DNA of 64,000 nt from an uncultured Verrucomicrobiae bacterium. GTDB lineage: Bacteria; Verrucomicrobiota; Verrucomicrobiia; Limisphaerales; JAFGQR01. Below are positions 14,586 to 28,074 of the stretch, piece by piece (position 1 is the first letter of the stretch; each line of letters starts with the position of its first letter). The position numbers and the translations under genes were made by a program. The stretch is from contig CAWBHS010000062.1 in the NCBI GenBank assembly GCA_963788655.1, positions 1 through 64,000 of the forward strand, read 5' to 3'. The notes beneath the pieces were generated by a model. The model was not told where the DNA came from, ran no database searches, and was given only the letters and a program-made list of their open reading frames with translations.

Positions 14586-14694
14586 GCCGAACGACGATGA
14601 CCGACCGCCCCGAATGACGACCCGGCTGCCAAGCGAAACGCCAGACGCAAACCGCCAAGCGGGTGGATGGTTCGGTCGATCGCTTTTGTTAGGC
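14586..14694 (-). other. attC-like site (array 1)
   Basis: Minus strand: R'' GCCTAAC overlapping the cassette stop codon, inner arms GATCGACCG / CGGTCGGTC, R' GTTCGGC. Confidence 0.75.
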
Positions 14695-15118: not shown

Positions 15119-15240
15119 GCCTAACAAGCTCAGCGACCGCCGCCGGAAACGCCCGGTCGGCTGCAACAATCGCTGATAAATTATCCGAACCGTCCGACTG
15201 CCCAGCGGGGCGGCGGTTCGCTGCAGCGCCCTGGTTGAAC
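15119..15240 (-). other. attC-like site (array 1)
   Basis: Minus strand: GTTCAAC-CAGGGCGCTGCAGCGAACCGCCGCC ... GGCGGCGGTCGCTGAGCTT-GTTAGGC; 122 bp with an extra base in the first arm. Confidence 0.82.
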
Positions 15241-21300: not shown

Positions 21301-23292
21301 CTAATCGGCCTTCGTCAATTTCACGAAGCGCAGGTTGATGGCCTTCCAGGTCCGGGAATCTTTGGAGCGCATTGTGACGATCAGTTCGCCGGGTTGCTTG
21401 ATTTCCACAGGACCAAGCTGCACCACTTGGAATTTGTCCCAGGAACCTGTTTGCGCGGCTTTGCCCGGGAGCTGTTGTCCGCCGATTTCCACCACAAATT
21501 CTGACGCGGGCTGAACCGCCGCGCAACTGGCACTGACGTTGAACGTACCGGCTTGGGGAATTTGCACCTTCCACGAAACCCATTCGTCGGCACGGTCCCA
21601 GAAACCGATGTTCGGCTGGCCACCTTGCGCCTCCTGTTTGATCTGGTCGCCGTGCAATTCAGCGTCGGCCGCGAGGAGGTTGAGATTGCCCCGCGCATCC
21701 GGGCGAACGGGCTCGATGATTTGCACGATCGGCACTGCCTGGAGGTCGGTGCCGGTGATTCTCAACGCGGCAGTGTACTCCGACACTTTTTGGTCGGGTA
21801 GCGTTACGACCAAGCCATTGGTGCTTTGGGCGAACGCGAGCTTGCCCTCGTGGCCGAGGAGTTCCACCTGTTGAATCTGGTTGATGCTTTCGCCGTCGGG
21901 CCGGGCGAGGGACCGGACAGTCAGTTGGCCGTCCTCGGGCCAGCCGAGCGCAATGGCGTAAAGGGTCTTGCCTTTGGTCGTGAACCGAATGTCTTTGGCG
22001 GTGTAGGCATAGTTCTCATTGAAATGGCCGCCCTTTGTCTTGACCGCCGCCTTCGCCATAAACCTGCCAGGGACGCGTGCCGTAAATCGCCTCGCCATGA
22101 ATGGCAATCCAATCGGCCATCTGCTCCAGATCCTGCTCGACTTCGGGATCGATTGAACCGTCGGGACGCTGGACAATGTTCAGCAGGAGATTGCCGTTCT
22201 TGCTGACGATATCGACGAGCATGTGGATGGTCCAACTGACTGGACGGAACTTCCAGTTCTGGTTGTAAAACCAGTCGCCGATGGACGTGTCAGTCTGCCA
22301 CGGATCCGGATTGATCTTCGGCATCACCCCGCGTTCGAGATCCTCGACCCAGCGACCTTCGGATTTCTGTTTGCACGTGTACACCACCTCCAGTTGCCCG
22401 CCGTGACGGGCGGCGTTGGCGTTGTAAAGATGGGCAATCAGGCTCCGCCCCACCTCGTTGCCGAAGGGCACGCCGCCGTCGGTGTAGAGCAGGTCGGGAT
22501 GGTAGCATGTCCACGAGTTCCTTGATTTCGTTGAACCACTGTTGTTGCCAGCGCGGGTTTTTGCTGTACCAACCGGTGTCGCCGGGTTCGGCGGGAAAGT
22601 GGTACAGATCCCAATACTTCGGATTCGCGCCGTCGTACGGCACGCCGGCCAGCGGACCAGTCTTGTCCGAACCATGACTGGGTTGGAACCAGGTGAAGCT
22701 GGCGCCCAAATGCTCCGAGACGCCGAAGCGCAGACCGTATTTTTGCGCCGCTTTCTGCCAGTCACCGACCACGTCGCGTTTCGGGCCCATGTTGACGGCG
22801 TTCCACTTGTGCAACTTCGAATTCCAGAGGAAGAAATTGTCGTGGTGCGAGCCCATGCTGACGAAGTATTTGGCGCCGGCACGTTTGTAGAGTCGCCATC
22901 AAACGGTCGGGATCCCATTTCTCCGCCTTCCACAACGGAATGATATCCTTGTAGCCATTCGTGGACGGGTGGCCGTAGCGTTCCAGGTGATCCTGGTATT
23001 GCCGGTTTCCCTGAACGTAAATGTGCTTGGCATACCAATCGCCTTCCATCGGCACCGCCTGCGGTCCCCAATGCGCCCAGATGCCAAACTTGGCGTCGCG
23101 GAACCAATCCGGGCACTGGTAGTTCTTCAACGATTCCATTGTCGGCTGGAACGGCCCGGCGGCAACGGGCAGATCGAGTTTGGCCGCAGGCTTGGCGTCC
23201 TGGGCCGGTGCGGACGCGGGTAACAACCAAGCGCCGACGGCGGACAGGGATAACACGGTGAGAATGGTTCGAATCTTCAAAGTCGTTTTCAT
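21301..23292 (-). CDS. Alpha-L-fucosidase (GH29) with C-terminal carbohydrate-binding-like module, several frameshifts
   Basis: PDWFRDAKFGIWAHWGPQAVP, HHDNFFLWNS, PDLLYTDG, VSKNGNLLLNI, GEAIYGTRPW. Confidence 0.9.
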
Positions 23293-23823
23293 AGTTATGT
23301 CTCGCCCCGGTTCAATGCGGTAGCGTTGTTTGCTGGACACGGGCAAGAGACTACGGAAACGGGAGAAAACTTTCGATGCCAAATTTCTCCAAAACAGCGG
23401 ACAACGATCGACAGCGGGGGGCTGCACACATTGGAAGGAAGTCGGCTAAGCCGCGGCAGCGTTTGCGTCCGGCTGGAAAGTCTTCAAGGGCGACAATGCC
23501 GAATGGTTCCTCCACAAAACCAACGGCGCCCGCAAAGCCTATCGCCGCCTCTGGCGCAAGACCCACGTCGATCCCCTCATCGGCCAACGCCGCCAGCGCC
23601 GTCGTATGGCCAGCCACCTGGCCCGCACCCTGCCCCTTTACCAATGGTCCAACCCTGCCACGCGCGACCTGATGACCAACTTCACCACCGGCCTGATCGG
23701 CGAAAGGACCATCCCCAGCGCCGTCGCCCGCGACAACCACTACAACGACTGCGAACTCATGCTTGCCGTCGCCGCCGTCATCTGCGGCCTCATCGCCGAC
23801 ACCCGCACCAATGCTTGACTGGT

Positions 23824-23907
23824 GGAACGATCAGGGTGAGCGACCGCCGCCGACAGTAAGGGTGAAAAGCACAAGGCGCTCTCGAATCGCGGCCCAGCAT
23901 TGAACGA
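23824..23907 (-). other. Degenerate half attC-like site (distal end of array 2)
   Basis: GGTGAGCGACCGCCGCCGAC (23835-23854) is identical to 25686-25705, and GCCCAGC(A/G)TTGAACG follows at nearly the same spacing; the R''-side arm is missing. Confidence 0.6.
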
Positions 23908-23917
23908 CAACTTCATA

Positions 23918-24202
23918 TCAACGATACTCCAAACAGGTGGAGAGGAGCACAACGATGGCAAGTGACGAGCAAACGACACTCCATAAAATCAGCTTGGGAA
24001 TCCTCTCCTTTGCGCGACGGCATCGGACAATCACGATGCCGCCAAATAAAACATTCAGCGTAACCAATGGTAAAGCAACAAGAACCTCCTCAATGTCCAA
24101 ACTCGGAACAGTCTTCATACCGCCAGCCAGGAATACTAAGCCTGCTAGCGGCACACCAAGAACAGCGCAAATGATAGTGAGCACTGACAGTATCTTTTTC
24201 AC
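23918..24202 (-). CDS. Integron gene cassette, small membrane protein
   Basis: Three hydrophobic segments; GTG start 13 nt after R' GTTGGGC; lower GC. Confidence 0.7.
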   Translation of the reverse strand: MKKILSVLTIICAVLGVPLAGLVFLAGGMKTVPSLDIEEVLVALPLVTLNVLFGGIVIVRCRRAKERIPKLILWSVVCSSLAIVVLLSTCLEYR

Positions 24203-24215
24203 AGCGTGCGCAGTC

Positions 24216-25235
24216 GCCCAACGATGAGGTCAGCGACGGGAGCCAGCCGTCAATGACGTTCGATTTGTCTCTGCGCTAATCGGCTCTCCCGTTCGCTGCC
24301 GGGTAGGAGCCGGGGTTGCCCCCGGCGCCCCCCACAGACCCGTACGTGAACAATTCGCTCATACGGTTCGTCAGTACCCGCCTTGCCGCGGGCGACCCGA
24401 GCGGTGCCCCGCTCAAGCGCATGACACGTTGCTGCCCGTTGTGCAATCCAAGCGAGTTTCGTTGATCCAGATGTTGAGCTCGATGTCTCGTCTGGCCTTC
24501 CCTCGCCCAGTGGTCATGCCCGGCATTGCCTTCCCGCCGCCTCTCGGCCTGTATCGTGGGTCCCTTGGGCCTCAGTTCCCCACGCCTCCGATCCTGCGGC
24601 CTTACGGCCTCGGAATCCGCGGGTACTATGCGTTGCTACGACTACCTTCGTCCCTCCCGGCGGGTTCGCTTGCGGCTCCCTTCCGGTACCTTGGGTTGAG
24701 ACGTGGTCTTTTGTGTCCCGCCCAGCTCGCGCCAGGTTCGGCTCGTGGGCCGTCCGCCTCCAGCGGCCAACGCCAGGGTGGTGATGGTGCCGGTCACCCT
24801 GCTTCCGGCGGTTCTCCCCAAGGAGACGGGAGGTCCTCCCGAGTTCCCGGATTACCCCTTTAAGCATACGCCCCGATCTCAGATCCCGGATGGGTTCCAG
24901 TCCGCTCGCCTTAACGCGGACAGGACTGCTGCCTTCCAGTGGATGCAACTGTCGGCTTTGGGTCCGGTTGCCCGAACTTATCCCTGGTCCACCACTATAC
25001 ATTTTTCGGGATTCAATTCCGCGGCCTGCGCCCTCGCTTCCCCTCTGCTTCGCACACCACCTCTCGGTGATCGCACTTCGGTTCCGCTATCGACCCGGTG
25101 GCTAGCCTTTGGTCGAGTGGGATTGGTCAGCACCGCTGACGCACCCACTGGGTAATATTGACGAATTTCAAGGGGCGTCACCCCTCTTCCAACGTCCCGT
25201 GCTTGTCTCGGCACAAGCATCCGGTTTGGTTAGGC
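24216..25235 (-). other. attC-like site split by a group II intron (halves 25217-25235 and 24216-24297)
   Basis: Removing the intron gives GCCTAAC-CAAACCGGATGC|AGCGAACGGGAG ... CTCCCGTCGCTGACCTCATC-GTTGGGC (101 bp). Confidence 0.8.
24298..25216 (-). ncRNA. Group II intron, RT ORF almost entirely deleted (919 nt)
   Basis: 5' TTGTGCC; internal GGAACTCGGGAGGACC and CATAGTACC..GGGAAC..GACCC..GGGAAGG motifs; DV GAACCGTATGAGCGAATTGTTCACGTACGGGTC; DVI ...GCAACCCCGGCTCCTACCCGGC with candidate branch A at -7. Confidence 0.87.
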
Positions 25236-25459: not shown

Positions 25460-25690
25460 ATGTCTGGAATCGCGGAAATCCAAAAGGCGGTACTCGCCTT
25501 GCCGGTGGCACAGCGTGTCATGTTAACCGAGTCGTTGTTGGATTCCTTACCTCCGCTCGCGGAGGAGTGTTCGGAGGCCGATAAACTGGCCGAAGCAGAA
25601 CGGCGTGATCACGAGATCGAGAGTGGCGCCGTAAAGCCGCTAACCGAAGCGGAATTTTGGCGGTGCGTCGATGGGGACCGGAAACGGTGA
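25460..25690 (+). CDS. Putative addiction-module antitoxin component (TIGR02574-like)
   Basis: ALPVAQRVMLTESLLDSL..AEAERRDHEIESGAVKPL; no toxin gene follows. Confidence 0.8.
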   Translation: MSGIAEIQKAVLALPVAQRVMLTESLLDSLPPLAEECSEADKLAEAERRDHEIESGAVKPLTEAEFWRCVDGDRKR

Positions 25691-25797
25691 GCGACCGCCG
25701 CCGACTGGGACGGTGGACTCACGAGGCTTTCCCAAACTGCTGCCCAGCGTTGAACGGAGAAGCGGGGCGGCGGTTCATCTCCACCAACTTGTTGAAC
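25683..25797 (-). other. attC-like site (array 2), R' degenerate
   Basis: Minus strand: GTTCAAC-AAGTTGGTGGAGATGAACCGCCGCCCCGC ... CGGCGGCGGTCGCTCACC; same family as 15119-15240. Confidence 0.72.
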
Positions 25798-25892: not shown

Positions 25893-26903
25893 ATGAAAAC
25901 TAAAAAACATGCCGCGAATGGCAACCCCACCAAAACCAACCTCAACCCCAACCTCCCCGCCATCCGCACGACCGGGCGCGAGTATGTCAACCCGGTCGAT
26001 TACCAGCATCCCTACCCGTGCCTGGCCCGCTTCGCCGACGTGCTGGCCCTGCGCTATGACGCCAATCGCCCCCGGCCCGCCTATTACCGGCAGGTGCGCC
26101 TGATCCACGAGCATTTCGGCGCCGACCCCAGCATGCTCACCGAGGACCAACTGCGCGACTATTTCCTGATGGTCAAGCTCCAGAAGCACTGGCAGCCCAA
26201 GTCCATCCGCCAGGCCCTGGCCGCGGCGCGCCTGTTCTTTGTCGAGCACCTGGCGCATCCCGACTGGCAGGTCTTTGCCCGGATCCGCGCCAAGGATCAT
26301 GACCGCTTGCCCGCGGTGCTCACCCGCCCGCAAGTCCACGATCTGCTGACCTTCATCCGCCTGCGCCGCTATCGCACGCCCATCAAACTCATCTATGTCT
26401 GCGGCTTGCGCTTGAGCGAATGTCTGGGCCTGACGATTCACGCTGTTCACGGCCGGGAAAACAAGTTGCGGATTCGCCGCGGCAAGGGCCAGCGGGATCG
26501 GATGCTGCCGTTGCCCACGTCCCTCTATCAGGAGCTGCGGGCCTATTGGGCGTTCCACCGCCATCCCCTGTTGCTCTTTCCCAATGTCGGCCGCGGGGCG
26601 CACACGCCCCAGGCGCTGGCCGCGCGCATGCACGCCGCCACCGGTCCCATGCCGCCCTCCTCGTTGCCGCGGCTATTGATTCTGGCCCGCAAGCAATTGA
26701 ACATCCCCGCCGCCTCGCTGCATTCCTTCCGCCATAGTTTTGCCACCCACTGGCTCGAGGCGGGCGCCCACCGGCCCACCATTCAACGGTTGCTGGGGCA
26801 CAAGCAGATCACCTCGACGATGATCTACCTGCACTTGACCCACCAGAGCGCCCAGGACGCCTGGCAGCTCATGGCCGCGCTGGGCCGCGGGCTGCCGCGG
26901 TAG
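25893..26903 (+). CDS. Tyrosine recombinase (phage integrase family)
   Basis: LPAVLT, CGLRLSE (R), GKGQRDR (K), HSFRH (HxxR), LLGH..STMIY (H, Y); no IntI-specific insertion evident. Confidence 0.93.
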   Translation: MKTKKHAANGNPTKTNLNPNLPAIRTTGREYVNPVDYQHPYPCLARFADVLALRYDANRPRPAYYRQVRLIHEHFGADPSMLTEDQLRDYFLMVKLQKHWQPKSIRQALAAARLFFVEHLAHPDWQVFARIRAKDHDRLPAVLTRPQVHDLLTFIRLRRYRTPIKLIYVCGLRLSECLGLTIHAVHGRENKLRIRRGKGQRDRMLPLPTSLYQELRAYWAFHRHPLLLFPNVGRGAHTPQALAARMHAATGPMPPSSLPRLLILARKQLNIPAASLHSFRHSFATHWLEAGAHRPTIQRLLGHKQITSTMIYLHLTHQSAQDAWQLMAALGRGLPR

Positions 26904-26928
26904 GTCGGCTACCTCCGCGTCCGCTCGC

Positions 26929-28074
26929 GTGAGCGCCACCGTCATCGGGGCGCGGCGTCGGTTCCTGCCCGCGTTCCTGGAAACCCATCCGCCGCTGGCG
27001 GAGGAACAACGCCGCGCCCTCTGGGCCTTCACCCATTGCCGCACGCCGGCCTTGGGCGGGCAGGCTTTTGCCTGCGCAGACAAAGCCTGCGGCCGCGTTC
27101 ACTTCGCCTGGCATTCCTGCAACCACAAAGCCTGTCCGCAGTGTGGCCGCCAAGCCACCGCCCGAGGGGTCCAGCGCGAATTGGCCCAGCTCGTGCGCGC
27201 TCCCTACTTCCTGGGCACCTGCACGCTCCCGGCCGAACTGCGCGGGCAGTTCTTCGGGCCCCACGCCCGCCAGGCTTACGACCTCTTCTTCCACGCCGTC
27301 TCCGGCGCCTTGCGGGAAAAGTTGGCCGCCGACAAAAACCTGGGCGCCCACCGCAGCGGCTTCACCGCCGTCTTGCATACCTGGACCCAGCGCCTGGAGT
27401 TTCATCCGCACCTCCACTGCCTGGTGCCCGGCGCGGGGCTGGATGCCGGCGGCCACTTCGTCCGCGGCAAGAACGAGGATCGCCTGGTGTTCCTGGGGCA
27501 TTTGAAAGCCGCCTTCCGTCAGCACTGCTACCGGCGCTTCAAGGAAAACAACTGGCCCGTCGATCCGGCCGTCTGGTCCACGGAGTGGAATGTCCAAATC
27601 CAACCGGTCGGCGCGGGGGTTCCCGCCGTGAAATACCTCGGCACCTATGTGGCGCGCACGGCCATCCGCGACGAACGCATCGTGGCGGTCGGGGACCAGA
27701 CGGTGACCTTCCGGTGGAAGGATCGCGATCACGATCGCCTCGCACAGTTGACGTTGCCGGGCATCGAGTTCGTGCGCCGCTACCTGCGGCACGTCCTGCC
27801 GCGAGGCCTGCGCTCGGTCCGCTATTACGGGTTCTGTCATCCCACCGCCAAGGCCCAGCGTCTGCGCGTGCAGTGCCACAGTGGCTTGCCGGTGCAATTG
27901 GGCGATCCCACGGTGGCCCCTTCCTCCCGTTCCACTCCGCCCTGTCCCGGTGGCGGCGGGCCGACGCGCTTCCTCGCGTCGGTTGGCCGATGGGCACGGA
28001 AGCGCGGGCCCCCGCGGCAACCGCCACGCCACCCGATCCCACCGCGGTCGAGCGCCGCTGCCATCGCCGCATGA
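26929..28074 (+). CDS. IS91-family rolling-circle (HUH/Y2) transposase with N-terminal Zn-binding domain
   Basis: HCRTPALGG..HSCNHKACPQC, LHTW..FHPHLHC (HUH), YLGTY (YxxxY), RHVLPRG..VRYYGF. Confidence 0.92.
   Translation: MSATVIGARRRFLPAFLETHPPLAEEQRRALWAFTHCRTPALGGQAFACADKACGRVHFAWHSCNHKACPQCGRQATARGVQRELAQLVRAPYFLGTCTLPAELRGQFFGPHARQAYDLFFHAVSGALREKLAADKNLGAHRSGFTAVLHTWTQRLEFHPHLHCLVPGAGLDAGGHFVRGKNEDRLVFLGHLKAAFRQHCYRRFKENNWPVDPAVWSTEWNVQIQPVGAGVPAVKYLGTYVARTAIRDERIVAVGDQTVTFRWKDRDHDRLAQLTLPGIEFVRRYLRHVLPRGLRSVRYYGFCHPTAKAQRLRVQCHSGLPVQLGDPTVAPSSRSTPPCPGGGGPTRFLASVGRWARKRGPPRQPPRHPIPPRSSAAAIAA

Follow-up and report, generated by a model that had tools for sequence, protein, structure and literature searches.

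A 919-nucleotide (nt) group II intron interrupts an attC site on the minus strand (24298-25216) of the window, the 64,000-nt stretch of an uncultured Verrucomicrobiae bacterium analysed here (GenBank assembly GCA_963788655.1, contig CAWBHS010000062.1, positions 1 to 64,000). The intron has no open reading frame (ORF) and belongs to a class E-like lineage. We consider it likely that the element is a class E-like (IIB-type) group II intron from which the protein gene has been deleted, and that its lineage homes to the top strand of attC at the junction between the spacer and the L'' arm.

Two Rfam models match the element. RF02005 (group-II-D1D4-6) matches 24874-25126(-) with 85.7 bits (E = 1.7e-22; gathering score, 49), and RF00029 (domains V and VI) matches 24298-24371(-) with 36.7 bits, slightly below the gathering score of 40, in support of the group II intron that a first-pass annotation of the window had placed at 24298..25216. 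The ORF list contains no reverse-transcriptase (RT) frame in the intron. The junctions read ...GGATGC/UUGUGCC... on the 5' side and ...CCUACCCGGC/AGCGAAC... on the 3' side. The 5' junction was set by comparison of relatives with unrelated flanks, all of which start with U[CU]G[UC]GCC and end with ...CCUACCCGGC, and by pairing of exon-binding site 1 (EBS1) with intron-binding site 1 (IBS1). It falls exactly at the position given by the annotation, which had allowed for a shift of 1-2 nt. Domain VI presents a bulged A 7 nt from the 3' splice site, and the intron ends with GGC.

The two exon halves (19 and 82 nt), joined in a script, form a 101-nt sequence that folds into an attC hairpin. In the fold, R'' (GCCTAAC) pairs with R' (GTTGGGC), the spacers form an internal bubble, and the L''/L' stem contains one bulged A. 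The restored site has, by pattern and by fold, the RYYYAAC and GTTRRRY boxes and the imperfect L''/L' repeat of attC. In addition, an unoccupied 101-nt paralogue of the site is located at C38:52347-52447 (C-numbers denote contigs of the assembly, L-numbers loci). Both the fold and the paralogue bear out the annotation, according to which removal of the intron restores a 101-bp attC, and the insertion is indeed 12 nt after R'' (GGATGC/AGCGAAC), so that the intron splits the site between the R''-side spacer and L''.

A search of the assembly gives four copies of the intron: the window copy, full-length copies on C38 and C24, and a truncated copy on C59. With the final 5' junction the full-length copies measure 2173 nt (C38) and 2185 nt (C24); as first measured they were 2171 and 2183 nt. 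The RNA parts of the three copies are 82-88% identical to the window intron. The C38 and C24 copies align to positions 3-774 and 779/780-919 of the window intron, with ~1258 extra bases between, and these bases encode an ORF of 433 amino acids (aa; L002 2226-3527 for the C38 copy). Since both full-length copies align around a gap that holds this ORF, the window copy is an ORF-less derivative, a loss that the annotation had not noted. Relative to the C38 copy, the deletion extends from codon 16 of the ORF to 3 nt past the stop codon. The 433-aa protein matches NCBIfam TIGR04416 (group II RT/maturase) with 322.9 bits (cut-off, 300) and is composed, according to Pfam, of RVT_1 and a weakly matching GIIM domain, with no endonuclease domain; the C38 and C24 proteins are 90% identical. 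Among 56 complete elements, 54 are in the 2150-2199 nt length bin, and only the window copy is near 900 nt. The truncated copy (C59:55738-56208) also has an internal deletion in domain I and stops inside the RT frame. It is on the array strand, ~4.4 kb beyond the last detected attC of an intI-linked array.

The insertion site is conserved among relatives. The flanks were compared in a pooled set of 80 metagenome loci (69-87% protein identity; 80 kept of the 526 stretches that encode a relative of the intron protein in a metagenome scan), genome-contig loci, and the copies of the genome itself. AAC is positioned 10-12 nt upstream of the junction in 55 of the 59 loci with 5' flanks of at least 20 nt; the distance from R'' to the junction is 11 nt in 37 loci, 10 nt in 17, and 12 nt in the window only. 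The first base of the 3' exon is A in 82/86 relatives. On the 3' side, 49 of the 70 clade flanks have an L''/L' stem in which a single base, at +6, is bulged; the corresponding figures are 55/5000 for random genomic positions and 0/37 for outgroup introns. In this L-box test, the first 13 bases of the 3' exon pair downstream with exactly one bulge at +6 and at most 2 mismatches in 12, and flanks are at least 100 nt; it supersedes a strict fold-based closure test that under-called attCs (46/70). The association with attC is not chance. The tabulated flanks of homologues, a check that the annotation had proposed, thus show the same site in use.

Three sets of loci stand somewhat apart. L027 has the intron at the same attC position though it is outside the 11-row clade described below. 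Two metagenome loci (L105 and L109) have the usual R''-spacer 5' flank, and their 3' ends abut an L'/R' half, the L'' arm and loop of the attC being absent. Multi-copy relatives with 42% protein identity in Vicinamibacterales genome loci (L045-L049) each precede the same ~200-nt repeat, which starts with CYGYAACG and gives no attC-like fold.

In the window, EBS1 GCAUCC (24941-24946) is positioned to pair with IBS1 GGAUGC (25217-25222) over 6 bp. Both the loop and the 5' flank could be read in 55 loci, and 45 of these have at least 6 contiguous EBS1-IBS1 pairs from exon position -1, as against 135/1100 cross-paired controls; the pairing with the 5' exon that the annotation had suggested looking for is therefore found both in the window and in relatives. 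The paired loci contain 15 different IBS1 5-mers, and the loop and exon words covary: CCAUCG is found with CGAUGG on C38, CCAGUG with CACUGG in many loci, and elsewhere GGAGC with GCUCC, GCAUGC with GCAUGC, and CUAGUGAU with AUCACUAG. Since the loop word changes together with the 5' exon word, the comparison shows retargeting of the lineage by EBS1 change. EBS3 was also sought by covariation and none was obtained, the +1 base being nearly invariant and the deviating loci lacking the relevant part of domain I. Taken across loci, the comparison shows that the lineage inserts site-specifically in the attC sense strand, where the spacer meets L'', with EBS1-IBS1 pairing as the guide. The attC-targeting rule of its own that the annotation had ascribed to the intron finds support in this pairing and in the conserved position.

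The same link to attC would be seen if one old insertion had spread with its cassette, with no repeated homing. Some loci are related in this way: metagenome loci L103-L105 and L107-L109 share a 5' flank, and L017, L018, and C24 share one attC type. However, the 15 IBS1 words with matching EBS1 changes, the many unrelated L''/loop sequences, the different upstream sequences that precede the same attC type, and the unoccupied attCs of matching type in the same genome make a single insertion extremely improbable.

The strand of insertion was assigned with an attC-family pattern (YAAC, spacer, A[GC]CGAAY ... TCG[CG]T, spacer, GTT) scanned over the genome, which supersedes a first scan with exact R boxes and minimum-free-energy folds that gave only two sites. 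Two arrays are anchored by integron integrase genes (intI). On C59, intI(+) is at C59:66134-67021, with pattern attCs directly to its left on the minus strand; on C49, intI(-) is at C49:288364-289293, with pattern attCs directly to its right on the plus strand. In both arrays the pattern reads away from intI, which is the usual arrangement. All three Pfam-matched cassette ORFs (Imm74 and Peptidase_S26 on C59, FGE-sulfatase on C49) are on the pattern strand, and both C59 ORFs end close to the R'' end of the following attC, within 17 nt of it or just inside it. Each of the C38, C59, and window introns has the orientation of the pattern in its local attCs, and a 139-aa ORF on the intron strand stops 12 nt before R'' of the C38 target. 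The single extra base sits on the R''-L'' arm, the arm that carries the extrahelical bases of attC. We assign the intron to the top strand because of the two intI-anchored arrays, the Pfam-matched cassette ORFs, and the bulge-bearing arm. The annotation had likewise placed it in the top strand, sense to the cassettes, and the reversed attC strand that it had named as a danger to this placement was tested and does not apply. A third intI match, on C69, is intact but at a contig end.

Three observations could be taken to favour the reverse assignment, in which the intron would be in the recombinogenic bottom strand and intI co-oriented with the cassettes. The R'' and R' consensuses are mutually reverse-complementary and strand-blind. 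In the window, the upstream antitoxin-like cassette ORF is on the strand opposite to the intron, the downstream ORF (23918-24202) being on the intron strand. Open frames near the junction favour the intron strand by only 18 to 11 (29 loci; five of the 11 share one flank), a test that is too weak in GC-rich DNA. Against the two intI-anchored arrays, the 3/3 Pfam-matched ORFs that are on the array strand and end at the R'' side, and the extra base on the arm next to the box preceding the ORF-distal end, a reversed strand is very improbable. Even then, the insertion would be 5' of the stem, still unlike the IIC-attC TTGT/T site at R''.

The intron protein was compared with other group II intron proteins. 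It is 41% identical to the Kl.pn.I5 protein (L100) over residues 2-431, 44% identical to a Sinorhizobium meliloti plasmid intron protein of no assigned class (L097) over its full length, 33% identical to class D E.c.I9 in the RT part only, and 30% identical to class F/g3 Ni.ha.I1. NC_007959, which we take to be the same Nitrobacter hamburgensis plasmid as CP000320, has an intron gene at the coordinates published for CP000320. The coordinates of E.c.I9 and Ni.ha.I1 are those of the supplements of PMC3552965. L100 is the protein of an 11,970-bp Klebsiella pneumoniae Col plasmid, and its accession is identical to that of the pKPN3 protein at the published Kl.pn.I5 coordinates. Kl.pn.I5 is labelled E1 in the supplement of Leclercq et al. 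2012, and according to another paper the ~12-kb Col plasmids carry the intron known as Se.ma.I1/Kl.pn.I5. A quick IQ-TREE analysis of 74 rows places the introns associated with attC in a clade of 11 rows (SH-aLRT, the Shimodaira-Hasegawa-like approximate likelihood ratio test, 100) within the family that holds Kl.pn.I5, and the class D and F references are on very long branches outside that family. Membership of class D and class F/g3 was rejected on the identities of 33% and 30% and on the long branches. The lineage groups with class E1 Kl.pn.I5 and not with the tested class D and F references. This agrees with the annotation, which had argued for a different lineage and had named RT relatives of the ordinary IIC-attC kind as evidence that would count against it; this condition does not apply.

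At ~770 nt, domains I-III are too long for a compact IIC ribozyme, a reading of the RNA that was considered at first and rejected. The best match among solved structures is a IIC intron protein (7UIM, 158 bits), and IIC-attC introns share with the present one a protein without an endonuclease domain; still, an aberrant member of the IIC-attC lineage has next to no probability in our estimate. From end to end, domain X included, the protein aligns with a class E1 protein. The RNA outside the ORF is ~870 nt, with an EBS1 of 6-8 nt, whereas a IIC ribozyme has 412 nt, a reduced EBS1, and no EBS2 (PMC3753933). The strand and the position of insertion also differ.

In domain V (D5), which reads GAAC..., the catalytic triad is AAC and not AGC (or CGC), with G opposite the middle A, in 14/14 clade members with a 3' end (genome-contig scan plus own genome). 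The sister groups also have AAC with G opposite. In the remaining, Kl.pn.I5-like members of the family, D5 reads GAGC... and the opposing base is A. Counted over the whole family (L017-L100), AGC is opposite A in 28 loci and AAC is mostly opposite G in 23 loci, and the swap follows the tree. The boundaries depart from the GUGYG...AY consensus, being UUGUG...GGC in the window and U[CU]G[UC]G...GGC in the clade; Kl.pn.I5 starts with the canonical GUGCG. The UYGYG start, the GGC end, and the AAC triad are lineage traits and not decay. In particular, AAC with its opposing G is a purine-purine swap and is conserved in multi-copy full-length elements. The atypical termini (UUGUG, GGC) and the AAC in the domain V triad that the annotation had pointed out in the window are thus common to the clade.

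The window copy keeps 177 of 184 consensus domain I-III pairs, which were derived from 46 distinct D1-D3 sequences; the fraction is like that of the full-length copies (0.946-0.995; one other copy, 0.826). The copy is a predicted well-paired ribozyme with its own matching EBS1. It is nonetheless without an intron-encoded protein (IEP), it is the one ORF-less form among 56 complete elements and the single such copy in the genome, and no exon-exon joint is seen in public contigs, in which the flanks are uncovered. These facts would fit a dead relic, in which the ORF was deleted in place and splicing and movement were lost. We regard such a relic as possible but unlikely: base pairing in the ribozyme is preserved to the same degree as in full-length copies, EBS1 fits the copy's own 5' exon over 6 bp, domains V and VI are intact, and the assembly also contains two full-length copies, whose proteins are 90% identical. 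That DNA and RNA contigs of other studies span the same deletion junction by 31 nt is a weak hint that the form persists elsewhere.

Four public runs were compared as contigs, which provided short pieces inside the intron and no cover of the flanks. The deletion junction is spanned by one DNA-run contig and one RNA-library contig. The contigs, from a salt-marsh DNA run and a rhizosphere RNA library of different studies, match window 24407-24652 with 1-2 differences. As the flanks are uncovered and there is no exon-joining contig, these contigs say nothing on splicing, an empty site, or habitat.

On the preferred reading of an attC-homing lineage, recognition would proceed as follows. As covariation shows, EBS1, a loop of 6-8 nt in domain I, pairs with the variable attC spacer over the 6-8 nt at its end (IBS1). 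The near-invariant A at +1 may serve as IBS3, and the conserved motifs, AAC of R'' (-11 to -13) and A[GC]CGAAY of L'', may be read by the intron protein or by a further RNA element. Because the protein is without an endonuclease domain, insertion probably needs a single-stranded target at the replication fork, following the paradigm of RmInt1, an endonuclease-less intron that inserts into single-stranded DNA at the replication fork. Having no RT/maturase of its own, the window copy would have to borrow those of the two full-length copies for assisted splicing or for movement. In DNA, the intron parts R'' from L''-L'-R', which should block use of the site by IntI, an enzyme that uses the folded bottom strand of attC, and two cassettes would thereby be fused. 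In RNA, an intron co-oriented with the cassettes could be co-transcribed and spliced out. The class E introns assayed in vitro spliced by hydrolysis and required EBS1 but not EBS2 (PMC3753933).

The element is an attC-homing group II intron of another class, strand, position, and recognition rule than the known IIC-attC type. The group IIC-attC introns (S.ma.I2, Kl.pn.I3, and relatives) are likewise without an endonuclease domain, are site-specific, and split attC. Their insertions, antisense to the cassettes, are in the bottom strand, within the TTGT/T word at R'' that follows the stem-loop, and it is the hairpin that is recognized (PMC3001079, PMC7923331). In contrast, the window lineage has a class E-like protein and inserts in the top strand 10-12 nt after R'', directly before L'', with 6-8 bp of EBS1-IBS1 pairing to the variable spacer. 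The class E introns Kl.pn.I5 and Se.ma.I1 share other features with it. They have an RT-X protein likewise without an endonuclease domain (41% identical over the full length), an IIB-like RNA with the EBS1 loop in domain Id, and a purine-purine mismatch at the middle triad position; Kl.pn.I5 has a GUGCG start, an AGC triad, and intergenic plasmid homing sites, whereas the window clade has UYGYG, GGC, AAC, and attC.

Non-IIC introns on the cassette-sense strand of cassette arrays are known from H.ha.F1, H.ha.F2, and UHB.I2. H.ha.F1 and H.ha.F2 of Halorhodospira halochloris are 5'-truncated class E fragments on the cassette strand of an integrase-free attC cluster (Sonbol and Siam 2021, PMC7923331), and UHB.I2 is a class CL1 intron just after an attC (PMC7923331). 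The 5' truncation left the insertion point of H.ha.F1 and H.ha.F2 undefined, and we set them apart from the window lineage by description only. The same paper cites one odd IIC intron in the top strand. In the sections of PMC7923331 at hand, no conserved position inside attC, EBS1 covariation, or clade-wide targeting is shown for its introns. Vi.vu.I1, an intron in a cassette of the Vibrio vulnificus chromosomal integron, is also non-IIC; it differs in being of class D, and the table that contains it (Table S1, PMC3552965) gives no attC position, so that it too is compared by description. In the portions at hand, a 2015 review (PMC4424553) names attC targeting for class C introns only, and a 2022 integron review (PMC8876359) mentions IIC-attC introns alone. 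No account of an attC-homing class E lineage came up in a full-text search of the literature.

ORF-less bacterial group II introns have reportedly been described by Simon and colleagues (2008). Like them, the window copy is a ribozyme without an IEP that derives from ORF-bearing relatives in the same genome; it differs in that the deletion is mapped, from codon 16 to 3 nt past the stop with the C38 copy as reference.

Several points weigh against a homing, active class E-like lineage. First, 10/55 loci are without a good EBS1 match, C24 included, and C59, which shares the loop GCAGCG with C24, also mismatches its own exon; this loop fits other attC spacers, for example that of window 15119-15240. 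EBS2-IBS2 pairing was not found in a fixed-offset complementarity scan of six introns, which gave conserved, non-covarying words only. Second, 21 of the 70 3' flanks do not pass the strict L-box test; by eye, about five of them resemble attC and the rest do not, L020, L023, L103, L117, L133, L169, and L181 being among the latter. Ectopic or rearranged copies therefore exist, as at least L020, L023, and several metagenome loci lie outside attC. Third, the class label was drawn from one class E reference, and the tree rows include no IIC-attC protein. Fourth, D5 has AAC and not AGC, and its activity is judged only by conservation in multi-copy full-length elements. Fifth, both anchoring intI genes (C59:66134-67021 and C49:288364-289293) have one in-frame stop each (TAA and TAG), and the attC cluster of the window has no integron integrase of its own, the neighbouring recombinase scoring 141 bits against a cut-off of 265. 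Sixth, an exon-joining contig was not seen among the short intron-internal contigs of the four public runs, with the flanks uncovered. Finally, the genome is a binned assembly (86% complete, 5.6% contamination), and the copies may not share one cell.

Table 1. Positions of the intron, the split attC, and neighbouring features in the window.
Feature	Position	Strand	Evidence
ORF-less group II intron	24298..25216	-	Rfam matches; identity to C38, C24, and C59 copies; kept pairs
Part of domain I matched by RF02005, EBS1 hairpin included	24874..25126	-	85.7 bits
EBS1 hairpin, loop GCAUCC (24941-24946)	24936..24953	-	Loop word covaries with exon word across 15 IBS1 types
Junction of IEP ORF deletion (~1258 nt in C38 copy)	24438..24443	-	Query positions 774/779 flank the gap in both full-length copies
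Domain V, AAC for AGC triad, G opposite middle A	24337..24369	-	RF00029 alignment and sequence
Domain VI, bulged A 7 nt from 3' splice site, GGC end	24298..24335	-	Sequence and RF00029 alignment; ...CCUACCCGGC conserved in clade
R'' box GCCTAAC	25229..25235	-	Fits RYYYAAC; pairs with R' in joined fold
5'-arm spacer; last 6 nt (25217-25222, GGATGC) are IBS1, the 5' exon end	25217..25228	-	6 Watson-Crick pairs with EBS1 loop
L'' arm, 3' exon start (AGCGA-A-CGGGAG...)	24282..24297	-	Pairs with L', bulged A at +6
L' arm	24232..24248	-	Joined-exon fold
R' box GTTGGGC, cassette boundary	24216..24222	-	Fits GTTRRRY
Neighbouring attC, degenerate L'' (ATGAAC), poor R', 9-bp L''/L' core	25677..25797	-	Sequence reading
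Partial attC (L'/R' half only), 76-78% identical to 25677-25797 attC	23838..23912	-	Direct repeats D1 and D2
Intact unoccupied attC, same family, spacer ending CGCTGC	15119..15240	-	Pattern scan; spacer fits C24/C59 EBS1
Intact unoccupied attC, same family	14586..14694	-	Pattern scan
94-aa hydrophobic ORF, cassette downstream of split attC	23918..24202	-, as intron	ORF list; no Pfam/NCBIfam match
76-aa antitoxin-like ORF, cassette upstream of split attC	25460..25690	+	Pfam Unstab_antitox 36.2 bits; TIGR02574 26 bits, below cut-off

The attC sites of the window look like an integrase-free attC cluster. Directly next to the attC at 25677-25797, on its R'' side, is a tyrosine recombinase gene (Phage_integrase, 88.6 bits; integron-integrase model, 141 bits, cut-off 265) followed by an IS91-family transposase gene (282.7 bits), the pair occupying 25893-28074. 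A recombinase like this one is also found at C44:24352-25185. Just left of the cluster, at 22016-23427(-), overlapping ORFs of 404 and 221 aa in different frames suggest a frameshifted gene.

The finding adds a second, unrelated way for an intron to find attC: a monophyletic class E-like clade does so by pairing to the variable spacer in the sense strand. Such introns are common: the metagenome scan gave 526 stretches with a relative of the protein, and of the 80 retained, most with readable flanks are in attCs. It bears on the stabilisation or fusion of cassette arrays in environmental bacteria, on the annotation of integrons, in which split attCs will be missed, on the open question of how cassettes are made, and, through a natural AAC triad, on ribozyme chemistry. 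Retargeting through EBS1, as observed in this lineage, is the same property as that used in targetron design.

Taken jointly, the observations could mean that class E-derived introns are active, widespread sense-strand attC specialists that act as reversible locks, offer a route to cassettes, and work with an AAC triad; we hold this whole to be a long shot. If it were true, an insertion would disable attC for IntI in DNA, and splicing would restore an intact cassette transcript. Cassette making has been proposed for IIC-attC introns and, to our knowledge, never observed. Since the present intron would be co-transcribed with upstream genes and its 3' exon is L''-L'-R', attC could be attached to a new gene, either by recombination between two copies or by reverse splicing into a transcript followed by reverse transcription, which would amount to a sense-strand route to new cassettes. 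In that case, AAC in place of AGC, together with the exchanged purine opposite, would represent a functional catalytic-core variant that occurs in nature.

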